Below, in pieces: positions 43,279 through 50,930 of a stretch of 64,000 bases of DNA (within the stretch, counting starts at the first letter, position 1; every line of letters begins with the position of its first letter). Origin of the DNA: Escherichia phage inny; the sequence record MN850601.1; one strand, written 5' to 3'. The position numbers and the translations under genes are program-made. The notes below the pieces were generated by a model. It worked only from the letters and a program-made list of their open reading frames with translations, was not told the origin of the DNA and did not search any database.

Positions 43279-43620
43279 ATGGAGCTAACAGAAGTATGGG
43301 ATATCGCTAAAGAGGCGATTATCCCTCTTATTGGCGTAATCTGGGTGGTCTTCAAACAGAAGATAGATGATATGGCAAGTGATTTGGATAAAATGGAAGA
43401 CAAATACCGCGAACTAGAAAAGAAGTTGGTGTTTGTTGAATCCACTTATGCTACCAAAGCAGAACTTGCTCAAATGCTTAACCAGATCAACTCTACATTA
43501 ATGGCAAATAATACTGCCTTAGAACAGAAGATTGAAAAAATAATGGATTTAAAAAATGCTCCTGTTCAATTAATGCTAGAGGAGATTACAAAGCGCACAC
43601 AAAGTAAGGACAAAAATTAA
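43279..43620 (+). CDS. hypothetical coiled-coil protein (113 aa)
   Basis: ORF track. Confidence 0.4.
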   Translation: MELTEVWDIAKEAIIPLIGVIWVVFKQKIDDMASDLDKMEDKYRELEKKLVFVESTYATKAELAQMLNQINSTLMANNTALEQKIEKIMDLKNAPVQLMLEEITKRTQSKDKN

Positions 43621-46034
43621 TGGCGAATTTTCCAACATATCCTGCTACGACACTAGAACAAGGTGTTGATCTGGTTATATTCTCGTCTAACCAGATGCAT
43701 GATGTTATTAATGGGGATGCTACAGCAACTGTAGAAACCGAAACAGGTTTAATACCTACACTGCGTAAAGCACTTGTTGATAACTTCTTCTTTAAGAGTC
43801 CTGTTGCTTGGTCAGCAGGATCAACTGAAACTGTATTTAACCAGTTACGTTATTTTGAAAACGGTATCTTGAGTGGGTACTATTATGCCCCATCTGCCAC
43901 TACTGCGAACCCTGTACCTATGCAGGGCACACCTGTAGGGGACAGTAACTGGACTCTGTACGCTCTTAAAACTGAACAGTTAGCTTCAGATGTGTATCCT
44001 TGGTATTTTAAAGGTGCTACAGGATATGAAACAGAAATCAGTCCTCCTTATATCTTTGATAATGCTATTGTCACCATTAACGGTGTAATTCAGATTCAAG
44101 GTGAAGCATTTACTATCAAAGATAGTAAAATTATTCTGGCAGAACCATTAGGTTTAGATCCGTCTACTGGTCTACCTAACAAATTGTTTGCTTTTATTGG
44201 TAAAACAACAGCCTCTACTTCTTACGTAGAGAAAAACCTTTTGTCATCTACCACTGGTGCAGCAATGGTTGGTCTTCCATCTGGAGGCAACCTGTTACAA
44301 GCTCAATACTTTGTAACGCCTGAGCAGTTTGGTGCAATTGGTGATGGAGTTACCGATGATACTCAAGCAATTTTAAAAACTATTACTTTCGCTAACACGA
44401 ATAACATTCAAGTACGTGCAGATAAGAATTATAGATTCACAAGCTCAATTGCTATGTCTGGTATTCGTTGGTATGGTGGTACATTCACTGGTAACGGTGG
44501 AACAATGATTTCTACTGTGTCCTGTTGGATGGAAAACGTTCGCTTTGAAAAATGTTATGTTAAGATGTTAGGTGGTGATTGCCGATTCTATCGTAATATC
44601 TTCTCCAACGCAACATCTACAGCAGCATTCTTAATGCAAGCAATGACAAGTGAAGGTACGTTGGACTTCAGTTACAACGAAATGTATGGTTGTAAATATG
44701 CGATCCTGCAACAAGGTACTGGAGAAGTAATGACCTACGGGCGTTACTCTAACAACTATATTCACGATATTAAAGGTGATGCTATTGAACTTAACGTAGT
44801 TCAAAAACACTACACTGAAGGTTTGATTATCGAGAATAACCACATTGCTAACGTAGATGCTTCTGGACAAGGGGCAAACTGGGGTATTGGTATTGGTGTA
44901 GCAGGTAGTGGCCCATATGGTGTTGATGTTCCTGATTCACAATATGTACGTAACTTCAGTATCGTTGGGAATAGGGTTTACAATTGCCGTCAATGTTTAC
45001 ACGTTGAAATGGGTAAAAACTTCACAATACGTGATAATGAAGTTTATCCTAACACAGCAGTTTCAACAGGTACAGGTTTAACTACTTGTGGTGTTGCATT
45101 ATACGGATGCCAAGATTTTGAAGTTGATGGTTTAACTGGTTATCTGCTTAATGATCCGTCTGTTTCAACACGCATGGTCTTTATTGATTGGGGTGTTAAC
45201 AGTGGAAGATATGCGGGGCCACCAATTAACTTTACAATTAAGAATTTGGATATTCCAGAATCCTCAATTGAGATTGCAACCTCTGGATCAGATGCTTGGG
45301 AAAACTCTACAATTGTTAGTAATATCAATTGTAATGTTTTTAAATGGCGTGGGCTACCATCTAGCTCTACTTTTAATAATATTCGTTGCCGTAGTATTGA
45401 CTTTATTGGTCAACACGGAAGCGGAGAAGGAAGTGGTGGCGGTTTCTATACTCGCAGCCAATTCACGTATATGAAGTGGGTAGGATGTACAGCACTTAGC
45501 GGAGATGAAACAACAGTTTCTTTTGCTAAAATCTACACTGATCGTTGCGATCAGGTTGGAAATAACTTTGGTGTTCCAACTGCTGTTGATGGTACAGGTC
45601 ATCGTGGGCCAGTTTTAACTACTATTTCTGAACAATATTTTACAGCTTATGATGAATTCCCAGGTGGGCGTGAATTCCCTACTGGAACAGTTATTCATTG
45701 TGCAAGCGGTAAAAAACATGTTGTTACAGTAGGTGGTGCTTTCTTTAGTGCCAACGAGAAAATAAAAGCAACTGTTACAGGTCAAACCTATCTACAGTCT
45801 AATGCTTTAAACTGGGCTAGTAATGGCTACGCTAAAGCAGCAGGTACTAAAATTGTTATTCCAGGTGCAGGTGCAAATGGCGGCGATCTTGTGACAACTA
45901 TAGCACGTGCTACATACGTGACAAATAGTTTGTACACAATAGATATTGCAGATCCAATTGTAACACCTACAGCAGAGAATACACAAATTAAAGCTCTGAA
46001 TCCTGTTACTTTTGTTACTGTCAACAATGCTTAA
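43620..46034 (+). CDS. tailspike-like protein with parallel beta-helix (pectate-lyase-fold) repeats
   Basis: 804 aa; repeated N/G/I-rich beta-helix rungs (IIENNHIANVDASGQG, FSIVGNRVYNCRQCLHVEMGKNFTIRDNEVYPN); followed by terminator. Confidence 0.55.
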   Translation: MANFPTYPATTLEQGVDLVIFSSNQMHDVINGDATATVETETGLIPTLRKALVDNFFFKSPVAWSAGSTETVFNQLRYFENGILSGYYYAPSATTANPVPMQGTPVGDSNWTLYALKTEQLASDVYPWYFKGATGYETEISPPYIFDNAIVTINGVIQIQGEAFTIKDSKIILAEPLGLDPSTGLPNKLFAFIGKTTASTSYVEKNLLSSTTGAAMVGLPSGGNLLQAQYFVTPEQFGAIGDGVTDDTQAILKTITFANTNNIQVRADKNYRFTSSIAMSGIRWYGGTFTGNGGTMISTVSCWMENVRFEKCYVKMLGGDCRFYRNIFSNATSTAAFLMQAMTSEGTLDFSYNEMYGCKYAILQQGTGEVMTYGRYSNNYIHDIKGDAIELNVVQKHYTEGLIIENNHIANVDASGQGANWGIGIGVAGSGPYGVDVPDSQYVRNFSIVGNRVYNCRQCLHVEMGKNFTIRDNEVYPNTAVSTGTGLTTCGVALYGCQDFEVDGLTGYLLNDPSVSTRMVFIDWGVNSGRYAGPPINFTIKNLDIPESSIEIATSGSDAWENSTIVSNINCNVFKWRGLPSSSTFNNIRCRSIDFIGQHGSGEGSGGGFYTRSQFTYMKWVGCTALSGDETTVSFAKIYTDRCDQVGNNFGVPTAVDGTGHRGPVLTTISEQYFTAYDEFPGGREFPTGTVIHCASGKKHVVTVGGAFFSANEKIKATVTGQTYLQSNALNWASNGYAKAAGTKIVIPGAGANGGDLVTTIARATYVTNSLYTIDIADPIVTPTAENTQIKALNPVTFVTVNNA

Positions 46035-46036
46035 TT

Positions 46037-46060
46037 AAAAAGGGGCGAAAGCCCCTTTAT
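46037..46060 (+). terminator. intrinsic terminator (AGGGGC-GAAA-GCCCCT + T-run)
   Basis: GC hairpin after tailspike stop. Confidence 0.65.
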
Positions 46061-46075
46061 AAAAGGAGTAGTAAA

Positions 46076-48037
46076 GTGATTTTAACACGTCCAAATAGTG
46101 CCATTGCAGACATGGTAGAGTCTCGCTATAGAAAGCGTAGAAGTTTTGCAAGTGGTTTTACCTTAAGAGATGCTCGTGAAGCATTGCTCTTTGAAACTGA
46201 CGGTAACTACTATCAGTGGAAAGGTTCTCTACCTAAAGTTGTACCTGCTAACTCTACTCCTACATCTACTGGAGGGATTTCAGATACAGCTTGGAAAAAT
46301 GTGGGTAATGCAGATGACATTGCTCAAATAGAATCAGAATTAGATGCTATTGAAGCTGAAATTGAAGATCTTAGAGAATCCATTCCAGAAGCTGGTAAAT
46401 CAGCTTACCAGATTGCCGTAGACAATGGTTTCCAAGGTACTGAGACAGACTGGTTGGCTTCTTTAAAAGGTGATCCAGGTGCTCCATTAAAGCTGCTAGG
46501 GACGCTATCTAATACCAACCAATTACCTACAACTGGAAACAATGCAGGAGATGCATGGATTGTAGGCGAGAATATGTATGCTTGGGATGGTACTGCTTGG
46601 AGAAAAGTAAACTCACAGGGGCCAGAAGGTAAATCAGCTTATCAAGTTTGGCTTGCAGCAGGAAACCAAGGTACAGAACTAGATTATCTTGCTTCAATTA
46701 AAGGTGATAAAGGGGAGCCTGGCCCAGAGGGGCCACAAGGTGTGCCAGGTAACAATGCTAATGGTTTTGATTACCAAGGTGCAGCTAATTCCGTTTCAGA
46801 TCTTCCTTCTGCATCTCCTGGAAACACATCTCAAGCATGGAGTATTGGTACATATCTATACGTGTCAAACGGTGTAGAATGGATCAATATGGGTGCTATA
46901 GTGGGGCCAAAAGGAGATAAAGGCGACAAAGGAGATAAGGGTAACACTGGTGATTCAGCTTATCAAGTCTGGTTAAATGCTGGTAACGTTGGTACTATTG
47001 ACGAATATATTGCCTCTCTGAAAGGAGAAAAAGGTGATAAGGGAGACAAGGGTGATCAAGGTGAGCAGGGTATACAAGGCTTGACGGGGCCAACTGGTGC
47101 AGGGTTGACCATTATTGATATTCTGACTGACACTTCTGAACTACCAGGAACTGGAGAAGATGGTGATGGTTATCTGATCAATAATGAACTTTGGGTTTGG
47201 TTGCAAGGAGCCACACAGTGGACAAATGTTGGTCGTTTAGCTGGTACTCCAATCACTGCAAAAGGACACGTTGCATCTGCAAGTGCACTTCCTCCTACAT
47301 CCAATTACGGTGATGCTTATCTGACGGAAGATACAGGTCATCTTTACATTTACACCTATGATGAACAAACTCAAACTGCTGAATATGTAGATATGGGTAG
47401 TTTGAAAGGTGATAAGGGTGAGAAAGGTGACGCTGGTACTAACGGTACGGATGGCGCAACTTGGATTGTTAAAACAACAGATCCAATCTCTAGGGATGGT
47501 AAACAAGGGGATTATGCCTTTAATATCTCCACTGGCGAGGTGTTCTTAAAAACATCTGCAACTGTCTGGACTTCTCAAGGTACACTACCTAGCATCACAG
47601 ATGCACCTAGTGACGGTAAAATCTATGCTCGTAAAGATGGAGCATGGGAAGAACTCACTAGTTCTGTAGATGGTCAAGATATAGTTCCAACAAAAGTAAC
47701 AACTAATTTTATAGAGGTTACAGCATACACCAACAACTCTGTTACAGGGGACTGGACACCTCCAGGAACACATAACATGAATGTGTTGAATCTTACTGGT
47801 AACTCTACTATAAAAGCATGGCCTGGTGTCGAAGATAGCACAAAACCTAAACCATTCTCTGCAATAGTTTATCTTATCCAAGATGCCACTGGGGGTCGTA
47901 CTGTTACTTTAGACCCATCTTACAAAGTAATTGGTTCTAGTGATATTAATACAGATCCTAACGGAGTAACAATACTACAACTAACATATTGTGGTGTTGG
48001 TGATTACGTGGATGCTATTGTTGCTAAACGCACATAA
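46076..48037 (+). CDS. tail fibre protein with collagen-like Gly-X-Y tracts
   Basis: 653 aa; GTG start behind AAGGAG; tracts GPKGDKGDKGDKGNTGD and KGEKGDKGDKGDQGEQGIQGLTGPTG; internal repeats SAYQ(I/V)..(N/D)..G(T/N)...(Y/W)LAS(L/I)KG. Confidence 0.6.
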   Translation: MILTRPNSAIADMVESRYRKRRSFASGFTLRDAREALLFETDGNYYQWKGSLPKVVPANSTPTSTGGISDTAWKNVGNADDIAQIESELDAIEAEIEDLRESIPEAGKSAYQIAVDNGFQGTETDWLASLKGDPGAPLKLLGTLSNTNQLPTTGNNAGDAWIVGENMYAWDGTAWRKVNSQGPEGKSAYQVWLAAGNQGTELDYLASIKGDKGEPGPEGPQGVPGNNANGFDYQGAANSVSDLPSASPGNTSQAWSIGTYLYVSNGVEWINMGAIVGPKGDKGDKGDKGNTGDSAYQVWLNAGNVGTIDEYIASLKGEKGDKGDKGDQGEQGIQGLTGPTGAGLTIIDILTDTSELPGTGEDGDGYLINNELWVWLQGATQWTNVGRLAGTPITAKGHVASASALPPTSNYGDAYLTEDTGHLYIYTYDEQTQTAEYVDMGSLKGDKGEKGDAGTNGTDGATWIVKTTDPISRDGKQGDYAFNISTGEVFLKTSATVWTSQGTLPSITDAPSDGKIYARKDGAWEELTSSVDGQDIVPTKVTTNFIEVTAYTNNSVTGDWTPPGTHNMNVLNLTGNSTIKAWPGVEDSTKPKPFSAIVYLIQDATGGRTVTLDPSYKVIGSSDINTDPNGVTILQLTYCGVGDYVDAIVAKRT

Positions 48038-48040
48038 TCA

Positions 48041-48066
48041 AAGCCCCTTCGGGGGCTTATTGTTTA
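48041..48066 (+). terminator. intrinsic terminator (AGCCCC-TTCG-GGGGCT + T-run)
   Basis: hairpin is the exact reverse complement of the one at 403..420. Confidence 0.65.
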
Positions 48067-48076
48067 AGGAGATTAA

Positions 48077-50896
48077 ATGTATCCTATTCCTTTATTTATG
48101 TCAACAACATCAGCTTCAGTAGTAACAGCTACATCTATAACTACTTCCTCTATTGGTATTGCAATAGTTGGTGGTAAAAAACAACTGACATACACAGTTA
48201 CACCGGAAGATGGTGCATTATTTGATATAGCTTTTTCATCTTCAGATAATACCAAAATGGTTATAGATAATAGTGGTATGATGGAGTTTGTTGCCGAAGG
48301 TGGTTTTGATGCAATAATGACAGCTAAAAATAATTTAGGTGCTGTCTTAACTGATCAATCTGGTGGTTATGCTTCAGAATTAAGTGTGTACACTGAAAGT
48401 CTATCGGCTATGGATGTAGGCACTACTCAACAGTTGGTTGCTACAATCAGTCCAGAAGGTGCTAAAGACCTTCCAGATATGGTAATTACATACACCACAA
48501 CAGATCCAGAAGTAGCTACTGTAAGCCCTACAGGGTTAATAACTGCTCTTAAAGATGGCGGTTGCCGTATAGGTTGTACTGCAACGTATCAAGGAACAGT
48601 TGTGGCCTCTGATAGTTCTTATTTAGGTGTTAATGCTATTCCTGTTATTTCTAATGTAACAGCCGTGGCAAACAGCTATGGAGACGTTCGTGTTGCTTGG
48701 GATGTAACTGATCCTCTAGATGGTGATACTTATACTGTAGAAGTATTAGATTTAAGTAATAATAGTGTTCAGTGGACTACAACAACCACGAATACTCATG
48801 CTTACTTTGATATCTCTGACTCTATTCCTCTTTATGGGTTTGCTCCAACATACCTTAAAATTAGCGTTAAGAGCACCAAAGCAGCAGCCGTTATCTTTAA
48901 TAACTCAATAGCTACAGATGATTCGTTCATTAAAGAAGTTATTGTCTTTGCTGGACAAGATAACGTAAATGCACACTTTACAGAACTATCTGGTGCAAAT
49001 AAAGCAGCAATGGGTAGCACAACAGCCCGTAATGCATATGCTACGCAACGTGGTTTAGCAAATGCTGAAGTTCTTCCGTTAAATACAGCTTCTGGATCAT
49101 CAGCAGCAGATAAATATGCTGACGATAAAGCTGGAACAGGTACACCAGATAACTACTGGTATGATCTGGATAACACAGCAGATGGGCCATGCTTAACTAA
49201 CTTTATCACTAAAGTCACACCTTATGCAAGTAAGGTTAAAGCAATTATTTGGGGACAAGGTGAAAATGATGCTGTATCAGCATCTTCGACTGTTGCAGGT
49301 AGGTACAGTAACACTACACGTTACCATGATGCTACGATAGCTATCTTTGATAAGATGCGTACAATAGTTCCTGCTTCTCAAGCAAAAATTGTTTGGCAGA
49401 TCCTAGGACGTTCTTATTTATATGGTGTAGAAGTTAATGGTGTGGATTGGCAGAAGTACAGAAATGTACAAAGAACCATCTCTACAGCACGTGATGATGT
49501 TATCATTGGTTCTTGGGTAGATGGTGCTGAACGTTACAGTGGTTATGTTTATGAAGAAGGTATTGATGGTCGTATCCATTATATTTCTTCTGTATACCAA
49601 ACAGCAGCTACAAAACTTGCTAAATCAGCAGCAGACGGTACAGACTTAACATCAACGTCACCTGTTTGGGTTGATATGGCTGTTCCAACTGGAGCAACAG
49701 CTACTTCCCAACCTAATCAAGATACAATTTTAGCATGGGATGCTCAAGGCTATAGTAAACACTACTTCCGTAATATTAACGTCTTAACCGCATCTGTATT
49801 AACTGAACAAACGCTTAATACGAACAGTTATACGTTTACCTATGCAGATCAAGTAGAACAATATGGTTTTGCAGCAGGAACTACTATATTTGATGTTGCA
49901 TATTATGACGAAGCAAATGATGTGTTATCTCCTTTAGTACGTTTTAATGTTAACGTTACAGCAGGAACCGTAGAAGATAAACCTGTCGTGATGGACTATG
50001 ATTTGACGCAAGAAACTCTTCCATCAGATGTTAAGGTTAATGGTGGGAACTCTTTTGCTCGTGCTTCTGGAGATATACTTGTAGCCACTAACACCTTGGT
50101 TGCTCCGTTGGAGTATGTTGGTAATACCCCTGTAGGTAGACGTGTAACAGCTAACACAGCTTCACAAATTTTTGTCAACAACGCCTTAACAAGTGCAAGC
50201 CCGTGGGTAAAGACCAACTTAACTGTTGCAGCTTCATCTGATAAATCTCCGGCTGGAACTACTGCCAATGTATTCAAATTAACTCCGACTACAACCTCTG
50301 GTAGTCATATCTTAACTGCAACATATACTAACGCGTACAACATATCTGCCGGACGTAACTGGTCTGCCTCTGTTTTCTTGAAAGCAAACGGGATTACTAA
50401 GGCCAAACTAAGATTAAAAGCAGGAACTGAAGTTAATGAGGGTACTTTTGATTTAGCAGCAGGTACATTCACAGGAAGTGAAGCTAATATTATATCTATG
50501 GGCAACGGTTGGTATCGTGCTATTCTGCATAAAACAGGGATAGCCAAACAGTCCTTCATAAGTTTTGAAATAATTGCCTTGGATGCAACTGGTGCGGAGA
50601 TTTTCGCTGGAGATGGTACTAGTAACCTTGCAGTTTGGTTGCCACAGCTTGAAGGTGCTTCTACAGGAGAAACATCAAAAGCTGGATCGCCTTATGTCTG
50701 CACATATCCTGGAAATTTAGGAGGAGTATCCTTCACTATACCAAGGAACGGACATACTGGTGTGGATGTTTACTATTCCAACGGAGACGTTGTTCGTGAC
50801 GTATTCTCTGGTACGGCATCTACTTGGACAATAAACTACTCCAGTTTGTACGATTGGGGATCAGTCTTTATTACAGGTTTGAAATATTACGACTAA
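48077..50896 (+). CDS. tail fibre/receptor-binding protein with sialate-O-acetylesterase-like (SASA) domain
   Basis: 939 aa; AAGGAG SD; Thr/Ser-rich Ig-like N-terminal repeats; esterase-type motifs VFAGQDNVNAHF and IIWGQGENDA. Confidence 0.5.
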   Translation: MYPIPLFMSTTSASVVTATSITTSSIGIAIVGGKKQLTYTVTPEDGALFDIAFSSSDNTKMVIDNSGMMEFVAEGGFDAIMTAKNNLGAVLTDQSGGYASELSVYTESLSAMDVGTTQQLVATISPEGAKDLPDMVITYTTTDPEVATVSPTGLITALKDGGCRIGCTATYQGTVVASDSSYLGVNAIPVISNVTAVANSYGDVRVAWDVTDPLDGDTYTVEVLDLSNNSVQWTTTTTNTHAYFDISDSIPLYGFAPTYLKISVKSTKAAAVIFNNSIATDDSFIKEVIVFAGQDNVNAHFTELSGANKAAMGSTTARNAYATQRGLANAEVLPLNTASGSSAADKYADDKAGTGTPDNYWYDLDNTADGPCLTNFITKVTPYASKVKAIIWGQGENDAVSASSTVAGRYSNTTRYHDATIAIFDKMRTIVPASQAKIVWQILGRSYLYGVEVNGVDWQKYRNVQRTISTARDDVIIGSWVDGAERYSGYVYEEGIDGRIHYISSVYQTAATKLAKSAADGTDLTSTSPVWVDMAVPTGATATSQPNQDTILAWDAQGYSKHYFRNINVLTASVLTEQTLNTNSYTFTYADQVEQYGFAAGTTIFDVAYYDEANDVLSPLVRFNVNVTAGTVEDKPVVMDYDLTQETLPSDVKVNGGNSFARASGDILVATNTLVAPLEYVGNTPVGRRVTANTASQIFVNNALTSASPWVKTNLTVAASSDKSPAGTTANVFKLTPTTTSGSHILTATYTNAYNISAGRNWSASVFLKANGITKAKLRLKAGTEVNEGTFDLAAGTFTGSEANIISMGNGWYRAILHKTGIAKQSFISFEIIALDATGAEIFAGDGTSNLAVWLPQLEGASTGETSKAGSPYVCTYPGNLGGVSFTIPRNGHTGVDVYYSNGDVVRDVFSGTASTWTINYSSLYDWGSVFITGLKYYD

Positions 50897-50898
50897 TA

Positions 50899-50930
50899 AA
50901 AAAGGAGCCATTAGGCTCCTTTTCTTTTAT
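50899..50930. terminator. bidirectional terminator (AGGAGCC-ATTA-GGCTCCT flanked by A-run and T-run)
   Basis: sits between convergent plus-strand fibre gene and minus-strand genes. Confidence 0.7.

Follow-up and report, generated by a model that had tools for sequence, protein, structure and literature searches.

Phage fibres with collagen-like repeats are textbook material, and here we analyse one gene for such a fibre, located at positions 46076–48037 on the plus strand of a 64,000-nucleotide (nt) stretch of Escherichia phage inny (MN850601.1); this whole stretch is called the window below. Judged by its sequence, the window belongs to a phi92-like myophage of the genus Justusliebigvirus. 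The closest described system is gp151 of phage phi92, together with its orthologues in Justusliebigvirus and Phapecoctavirus (phrog_15437). phi92 gp151 represents the same gene, with the same length and the same position after gp150; a few substitutions separate the two, and nothing essential differs. The sister-genus orthologues have the same order of modules at ~60% identity.

Other described systems share parts of the design. EPclA and EPclB, which are encoded by prophages of Escherichia coli O157:H7, contain a collagen domain and separate trimerisation domains, and the trimer and triple helix of EPclA have been shown experimentally (Ghosh et al. 2012, PMC3368898). The inny protein and the EPcl proteins are alike in being side-tail-fibre-type proteins in which a Gly-X-Y collagen domain occurs alongside distinct domains for trimerisation; in the inny protein, the latter are predicted. 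The EPcl proteins have a different architecture, with PfN, PCoil, and PfC around a single collagen domain, whereas in the inny fibre four short tracts alternate with repeated modules of two kinds (termed A and B), the anchor is a Tail_spike_N domain, and the C-terminal knob is of another kind. The Tal extensions of Streptococcus thermophilus phages were predicted by AlphaFold2 to form trimeric collagen-like linkers of variable length, which alternate with small '3-beta' domains and terminal binding modules (PMC9437275). Their building principle is shared with the inny fibre as a likeness of design, but the Tal systems differ in their Gram-positive host, their siphophage Tal carrier, and their carbohydrate-binding terminal modules.

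The branched tailspikes of phages CBA120 (TSP1–4) and G7C (gp63.1/gp66) have the Tail_spike_N domain in common with the inny fibre, with ~40% identity across ~70 residues. Behind this anchor they carry enzymatic beta-helix spikes, whereas the inny fibre has a non-enzymatic shaft of collagen and beads. T4 fibritin (a coiled coil and a foldon) and C1q and the collectins (a collagen stalk and a globular head) follow a common logic with the proposed form of the fibre, that is, a trimeric rod registered by a small C-terminal folding nucleus and ending in a globular head.

A tail fibre gene of the phi92 type

A single open reading frame (ORF) on the plus strand coincides exactly with positions 46076–48037 and encodes 653 amino acids (aa). 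Its product matched phrog_15437 (tail fiber protein) over its full length, with aa 1–653 aligned to profile positions 1–656 of 656 (1343.6 bits). The gene is 97.6% identical to phi92 gp151 (FR775895.2) at the nucleotide level across 100% of its length, and both proteins have 653 aa. Full-length matches to the gene were found in 55 phage records, with nucleotide identities of 96.6–99.4%. The ORF directly upstream (43620–46034) encodes a colanidase tailspike that matched phrog_6117 (colanic acid degradation), and the order of the colanidase tailspike gene (gp150 in phi92) followed by the fibre gene is the same in phi92, EmilieFrey, PHB05, and alia. A third large fibre gene (48077–50896) comes after it. 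The original prediction, which was made from the DNA letters and the translated ORFs, had called the gene a tail fibre gene, and this identification is supported by the full-length match to phrog_15437, the identity to phi92 gp151, the place after the colanidase gene, and an N-terminal Tail_spike_N domain (E = 3.6e-21). The gene product is probably a structural and homotrimeric lateral tail fibre of a Justusliebigvirus myophage, orthologous to phi92 gp151.

The gene, its role as a fibre, and its collagen domain are already annotated in databases, and it is an ordinary modular phage fibre in this respect. The BASEL collection labels it 'lateral tail fiber protein with type I collagen domain', and the phi92 record labels gp151 'potential tail fiber'.

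Repeat families and collagen-like tracts

Three copies of a motif of ~25 residues had been predicted, and they are present at aa 109–133, 187–211, and 294–318, with pairwise identities of 64%, 48%, and 68%. The BLOSUM62 local score of each copy of this 'SAYQ' motif (the A motif) against the best other copy was 79–89, compared to 27 ± 4 when the remainder of the protein was shuffled 500 times (z = 13–16). The 'SAYQ' profile detected exactly three copies, with E values from 5e-20 to 1e-16, and 300 shuffled versions of the protein yielded none, so the repeats are recognisable by formal repeat detection. As for the collagen-like sequence in the same prediction, the Gly-X-Y tracts themselves stood, but their number was given as two and is four. 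The four uninterrupted Gly-X-Y runs are located at aa 210–227, 277–294, and 445–462, with six triplets each, and at aa 317–343, with nine triplets. A run of at least six triplets occurred even once in only 8 of 5000 shuffles, and the Pfam family Collagen (PF01391) scored 32.4 bits against a cut-off of 27.2.

A second repeat family, the B modules, consists of four ~46-aa units of the form 'LP..G..GDAY...Y.W.G..W...G' at aa 140–184, 233–279, 346–391, and 395–447. Pairwise z scores among B1–B4 were 3.7–7.5, and the observed scores were reached in 0–4 of 1000 shuffles. A fifth beta unit (B5, aa 463–505) is marginally related, with z = 3.4 to B3 and no relation to the other copies. This beta-module family, the trimer-type coiled coil, and the foldon-like hairpin described below had been missed by the original prediction.

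In 58 copies of the A motif taken from homologues, the glycines at positions 2, 13, 16, 27, and 30 were invariant, and the motif therefore reads G-x10-G-x2-G-x10-G-x2-G and continues directly into Gly-X-Y. AlphaFold2 predicted two short helices (a helix-turn-helix) for each A copy and four strands for each B copy, with a predicted local distance difference test score (pLDDT) of ~80. Scans of single A and B copies gave no family above threshold in the Pfam copy that was searched. An assignment of the A motif (46400–46474 and the other copies) to DUF2934 (PF11154) was not supported, the similarity being weak and below threshold, with 13.6 bits against a cut-off of 22 and E ≤ 0.1 in only 3 of the 58 copies; DUF2934 is the sole precomputed Pfam hit in homologues built almost wholly of A copies, such as one with ~20 copies (P0024). 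The A-motif profile matched nothing meaningful among sequences of the PDB, the best match being designed ankyrin-type repeats (E = 0.12), and a text search of the literature for the motif string found nothing but author names. The B-module profile matched the phiKZ internal capsid protein gp184 (E = 1.4e-5) and, weakly, a JBD30 baseplate protein in the PDB, with no others. These matches confirm a small beta unit and give no function.

The collagen triplets are rich in charged residues, with Asp or Glu at position X in 14 of 27 triplets, Lys at position Y in 10 of 27, and nine K-G-D/E motifs, and the tracts are poor in proline (6 of 81 residues). Such an Asp/Glu–Lys pattern is that of the charge-stabilised type of bacterial collagens, such as Scl2.

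Domain organization of the fibre protein

The 653-aa protein was mapped with Pfam, the repeat profiles, and an AlphaFold2 monomer model with a mean pLDDT of 67.8; all features given below lie on the plus strand. The folded beads were modelled with confidence (~80), and pLDDT fell below 50 exactly across the four collagen tracts, which is attributed to modelling a triple helix as a monomer.

At the N-terminus, a Tail_spike_N domain (PF18668) occupies aa 11–77 (46106–46306), with 75.5 bits against a cut-off of 25 and a pLDDT of ~80. When this region was searched against PDB sequences, the matches were tailspike N-termini, with E = 4.7e-14 for 9vvr and others down to 2.9e-7, and they included CBA120 TSP1/3/4 and G7C gp63.1, with which the Foldseek result concurred. 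The Tail_spike_N domain is likely the attachment domain of the fibre. It is followed by an alpha-helical segment at aa 81–104 (46316–46387), which AlphaFold2 modelled as a helix at aa 81–102 and which has Ile or Leu at each heptad a and d position (I83, I86, L90, I93, I97, L100, and I104). From this heptad pattern, the segment is likely a trimeric coiled coil.

The shaft begins with A1 at aa 106–136 (46391–46483; profile E = 5e-20), modelled with helices at aa 110–116 and 123–130, and B1 at aa 140–184 (46493–46627; profile E = 7.6e-18, pairwise z 5.0–7.5), modelled with four strands at a pLDDT of 80–85. A2 at aa 184–214 (46625–46717; E = 1e-16) runs into collagen tract 1 at aa 210–227 (46703–46756; GDKGEPGPEGPQGVPGNN). 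After B2 at aa 233–279 (46772–46912; E = 7e-14), collagen tract 2 is found at aa 277–294 (46904–46957; GPKGDKGDKGDKGNTGDS), where the DNA contains a 9-nt tandem array (46910–46935). A3 at aa 291–321 (46946–47038; E = 3.5e-17) has a collagen tract on either side, and the second of these, tract 3 at aa 317–343 (47024–47104), coincides with a repeat_region in the record of phage alia. Then come B3 at aa 346–391 (47111–47248; E = 6.6e-15), which has a variable loop insertion in sister-genus orthologues, and B4 at aa 395–447 (47258–47416; E = 7.7e-14), which has a longer hairpin. Collagen tract 4 at aa 445–462 (47408–47461) again contains a 9-nt tandem array, and the divergent unit B5, 'GDYAFNxxTGxVFxKT...W', for which AlphaFold2 predicted strands, closes the shaft at aa 463–505 (47462–47590).

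The distal part consists of a foldon-like hairpin and a knob. The hairpin 'DAPSDGKIYARKDGAWEEL' spans aa 506–530 (47591–47665), with a sub-threshold match to Fibritin_C and a low-confidence AlphaFold2 hairpin at aa 516–527, and hundreds of other fibre proteins contain tandem copies of the motif. The C-terminal beta-sandwich knob at aa 540–653 (47693–48034) was assigned to Phage_phiTE_241_C (PF26209) by proxy, that is, from assignments precomputed on a 97%-identical protein (P0001) and on orthologues (P0002–P0014, P0009, and P0018). The cryo-electron microscopy (cryo-EM) paper on phiTE does not discuss protein 241, so this Pfam name adds no function. The knob was modelled with a pLDDT of 95.8, and its best structural match was the trimeric capsid spike Pa223 gp52. 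An exhaustive HMMER search for the knob over 1.84 billion representatives gave 662 hits, many of which were obtained through the foldon-like repeat and not the knob. In the aligned hits, whose lengths differ widely, the knob was located at the extreme C-terminus (for example, 373–487 of 487, 608–734 of 734, and 1486–1603 of 1603). A word-index protein search with the C-terminal fragment alone returned 2 proteins only.

As a separate observation on the knob, phrog_4549 matched both the colanidase tailspike and the fibre, with its positions 153–263 aligned to the colanidase N-terminus (aa 9–116 of ORF 43620–46034) and its positions 743–869 aligned to the fibre C-terminus (47651–48034). In a sister-group contig assembled from a sequencing run (L005), the upstream protein has Phage_phiTE_241_N and the fibre has Phage_phiTE_241_C. 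A single phiTE-type protein thus has its two ends divided between neighbouring genes.

Length variation and module shuffling

Within the genus, the gene is 1962 nt long in 47 of 55 records and 1971 nt long in the other 8, which was the sole length difference seen. In PHB05, the one that was aligned among the 8 longer records, the extra 9 nt add one GEK triplet to tract 4 inside its 9-nt tandem array, at about position 47417. Thirteen sister-genus orthologues are ~60% identical and 622–681 aa long; their modules come in the same order, and the number of triplets is the main difference between them. Tract 1 always has 6 triplets, while tracts 2, 3, and 4 have 5–11, 8–10, and 0–13, respectively. 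Although the collagen tracts represent only 12% of the length, they account for 58 of the 126 gap-containing columns in the alignment of these 13 orthologues; the indels come in whole triplets, and most of them fall within tracts 2–4. One orthologue (P0014) lacks B5 in the alignment.

A larger change was found in Escherichia phage EP57 (OR544956.1), which has a clean in-frame deletion of 486 nt (L004 1501–3039 compared to L005 1501–3525). Lost are most of collagen tract 4, all of B3, B4, and tract 3, and the end of A3. The flanks of the deletion are 97.3% identical to the full-length relative, and no homology is evident at the breakpoints. At the DNA level, the A-motif copies are 66–72% identical and have no long exact repeats in common. 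Homologous recombination between motif copies was thus rejected as the source of length change, given the divergence of the DNA copies and the EP57 ends, and the low identity and lack of long exact repeats are better fitted by slippage in the 9-nt arrays or by illegitimate deletion. The expectation of recombinational length variation in this repeat-containing fibre hence holds in a limited form, as triplet changes in the collagen tracts and module shuffling at greater distance, and fails as recombination between motif copies.

At greater distance, ~120 homologues reuse the modules variably, with 0 to ~20 A copies and 3–12 B copies; their collagen tracts reach 26 triplets, and as many as 7 foldon-like hairpins occur. 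Homologues bearing the Tail_spike_N anchor all start with A-B-A-c6-B. In several of the nearest distant homologues, collinear similarity stops at tract 4 and is followed by a different distal end.

Proposed structure of the fibre

In the structure that we propose, the Tail_spike_N domain would dock the trimer on the baseplate fibre network, and the three-heptad Ile/Leu coiled coil would begin trimerisation. The shaft would resemble beads on a string in the order A1-B1-A2-c1-B2-c2-A3-c3-B3-B4-c4-B5, where A is the helix-turn-helix 'SAYQ' motif, B the four-stranded beta unit, and c a predicted collagen triple helix of 6–9 triplets. The A and B modules and the foldon-like hairpin would keep the three chains in register, which would enable very short collagen segments, and these would serve as stiff spacers whose length is altered one triplet each time. 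The foldon-like hairpin and the beta-sandwich knob would form the distal end, the part most likely touching the cell surface. The rise of collagen is ~0.29 nm per residue, from which the 27 triplets would contribute ~23 nm of shaft and each extra triplet would add ~0.86 nm. The conserved module order with a varying number of triplets counts in favour of a fibre with collagen spacers.

Several points weigh against the proposed structure. A 2026 cryo-EM study of phi92 found that the AlphaFold3 model of gp151 fits no baseplate fibre density (PMC13450770). Fibritin_C (PF07921) scored 19.1 bits at aa 502–529 (E = 0.0014), which is below the cut-off of 21. Moreover, the structure predictions were of monomers. 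What we observe directly are the repeats, the domain matches, the orthology, and the pattern of length variation, whereas trimer formation, triple-helical collagen, chain registration by the A and B modules, and a receptor-binding knob are for this reason inferred.

A broader reading might be entertained tentatively, at well below even confidence. The A motif and the B unit might be uncurated, mobile trimer-registration modules that, together with charge-stabilised collagen and foldon-like hairpins, make up a kit for a very large phage-fibre family. In that case, gp151 might be a C1q-like adhesin, the unplaced flexible fibre of phi92-type virions.

Alternative explanations and host range

The place and role of the knob might be read differently. 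In a branching or adaptor fibre, the knob, rather than binding the cell, would offer a docking site to a second fibre or spike within the multivalent phi92-type adsorption apparatus, and the high conservation of the knob and its fold matches, which include the N-terminal domains of CBA120 TSP4 and a gp9-like protein, fit this idea. We consider it unlikely, since the extreme C-terminus, where the knob lies in the aligned hits, is where a distal tip is usually placed, the free-standing spike Pa223 gp52 provides the best fold match with its distal end, the 'proximal subunit' annotation in jumbo phages is unverified, and no partner has been identified. That same match, to a capsid spike, would also suit a fibritin-like head, neck, or whisker fibre, acting as an accessory adhesin or an environmental sensor. 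So would the coiled coil and foldon-like C-proximal motif, which T4 fibritin has as well, the mention of an N-terminal 'potential capsid binding domain' in the phi92 record, and the misfit of the AlphaFold3 model to the baseplate. However, a thin and flexible collagen-type fibre would be averaged away in cryo-EM at any attachment site, and the density misfit therefore says little. The N-terminal domain is of a type that belongs to tail- or baseplate-attached tailspikes (CBA120, G7C, K1F, and 9NA), the gene sits inside a tail-fibre cluster with the colanidase tailspike on one side and another fibre gene on the other, and the Fibritin_C score stays below its cut-off; a whisker fibre is thus very improbable, and a lateral tail fibre attached to the baseplate remains our preferred reading.

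Least probable of all, and largely refuted at the genus level, is a gene in which internal repeats drive frequent homologous recombination and so bring about rapid switches of specificity; the original prediction had called repeat-containing fibres prone to host-range switching. Collagen-repeat-flanked host-specificity cassettes of Streptococcus thermophilus phages are a precedent, and the inny fibre does have short 9-nt tandem arrays, indels in its collagen tracts, and distant homologues whose differing distal ends begin there. Against this stand the single length variant of one triplet among the 55 genus records, the divergence of the A-motif DNA copies, and the low variability of the protein. 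Among nine genus members whose listed hosts are E. coli, Salmonella, Serratia, and (unverified) Campylobacter, only 28 of 653 positions vary, and synonymous codon differences exceed non-synonymous ones in every pair. The C-terminal knob, at 2.5% variable positions, is among the most conserved parts of the protein in these nine phages, and no hypervariable region between the collagen repeats that tracks host range was seen in them, the B3–B4 stretch being 7.5–8.3% variable. Host ranges differ greatly even where gp151 is >97% identical between genus members, which a published comparison attributed to the gp143 locus (PMC10269720), and the variable gene in this region is the downstream neighbour. 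Host-range switching through the fibre gene is therefore unsupported within the genus.

Receptor studies tie recognition of the NGR polysaccharide (ECA in an earlier BASEL paper) to the gp142-type fibre. The BASEL paper reported that these phages depend on the lipopolysaccharide core and assigned no fibre to it. At greater evolutionary distance, different distal ends are grafted on from tract 4 onward, a sequence pattern that would fit the general idea of host-range change.

Two further observations concern host range and the surrounding locus. The downstream fibre gene (48077–50896) encodes 939 aa with two Big_2 domains and a weak SASA-esterase match and is the variable locus in the genus. 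The corresponding locus comprises gp152 (609 nt) and gp153 (888 nt) in phi92, 1887 nt in KKP_3264 and pEC-M2929, 573 nt in UAB_1, and ~2820 nt in PHB05 and EmilieFrey. Four 'Campylobacter phage' genomes (MG065639.1 and three siblings), which are flagged UNVERIFIED, belong to Justusliebigvirus and carry the gene at 97.5% identity, and their host label looks doubtful.

Start codon, hairpins, and genomic surroundings

The start codon of the gene differs between GenBank records, being GTG at 46076 in phi92 and EmilieFrey and ATG at 46112, 36 nt downstream, in KKP_3264 and pEC-M2929. The GTG is favoured because the N-terminal 'LTRPNSAIAD' is kept in distant homologues and because it has a ribosome-binding site, AAGGAG, at 46063–46068 on the plus strand, 7 nt 5' of the start codon. 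An AGGAG site is annotated at the equivalent place in the phi92 record.

A GC-rich hairpin lies directly 3' of each of the three fibre genes, with z scores of −3.2 to −4.6. The first of them (46039–46058, plus strand), which lies between the genes for the colanidase tailspike and the fibre, has an RNA folding energy of −14.4 kcal/mol (z = −3.2 compared to shuffles), and the one directly 3' of the fibre gene stop codon (48041–48058, plus strand), which was found in a scan for terminator-like elements, has −13.1 kcal/mol (z = −3.5). The third, at 50900–50923 (−15.4 kcal/mol), is the only one followed by a clear T-run. The three hairpins may terminate transcription in part or stabilise transcripts, thereby setting the stoichiometry of the fibres; the one at 46039–46058 may act by weak termination or by stabilising the transcript.

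The sign of the GC skew flips near 8 kb and 51 kb of the window, and the flip at ~51 kb coincides with the change from plus-strand structural genes to minus-strand genes past the fibre cluster. ORFs of 60–98 aa on the opposite strand within the fibre region were considered and attributed to chance.

Implications

The module map accounts for gp151 having escaped placement by cryo-EM, since thin and flexible collagen-type segments average out, and its module boundaries can be used for expressing fragments of the protein. For protein design, collagen segments of 6–9 triplets that are nearly free of proline and registered by small folded modules represent a natural template for trimeric rods of tunable length. 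For the phages themselves, the gene encodes a conserved structural fibre and is no host-range hot spot, and host-range work on phi92-like therapeutic phages is better aimed at the gp143 position and the variable downstream gene.

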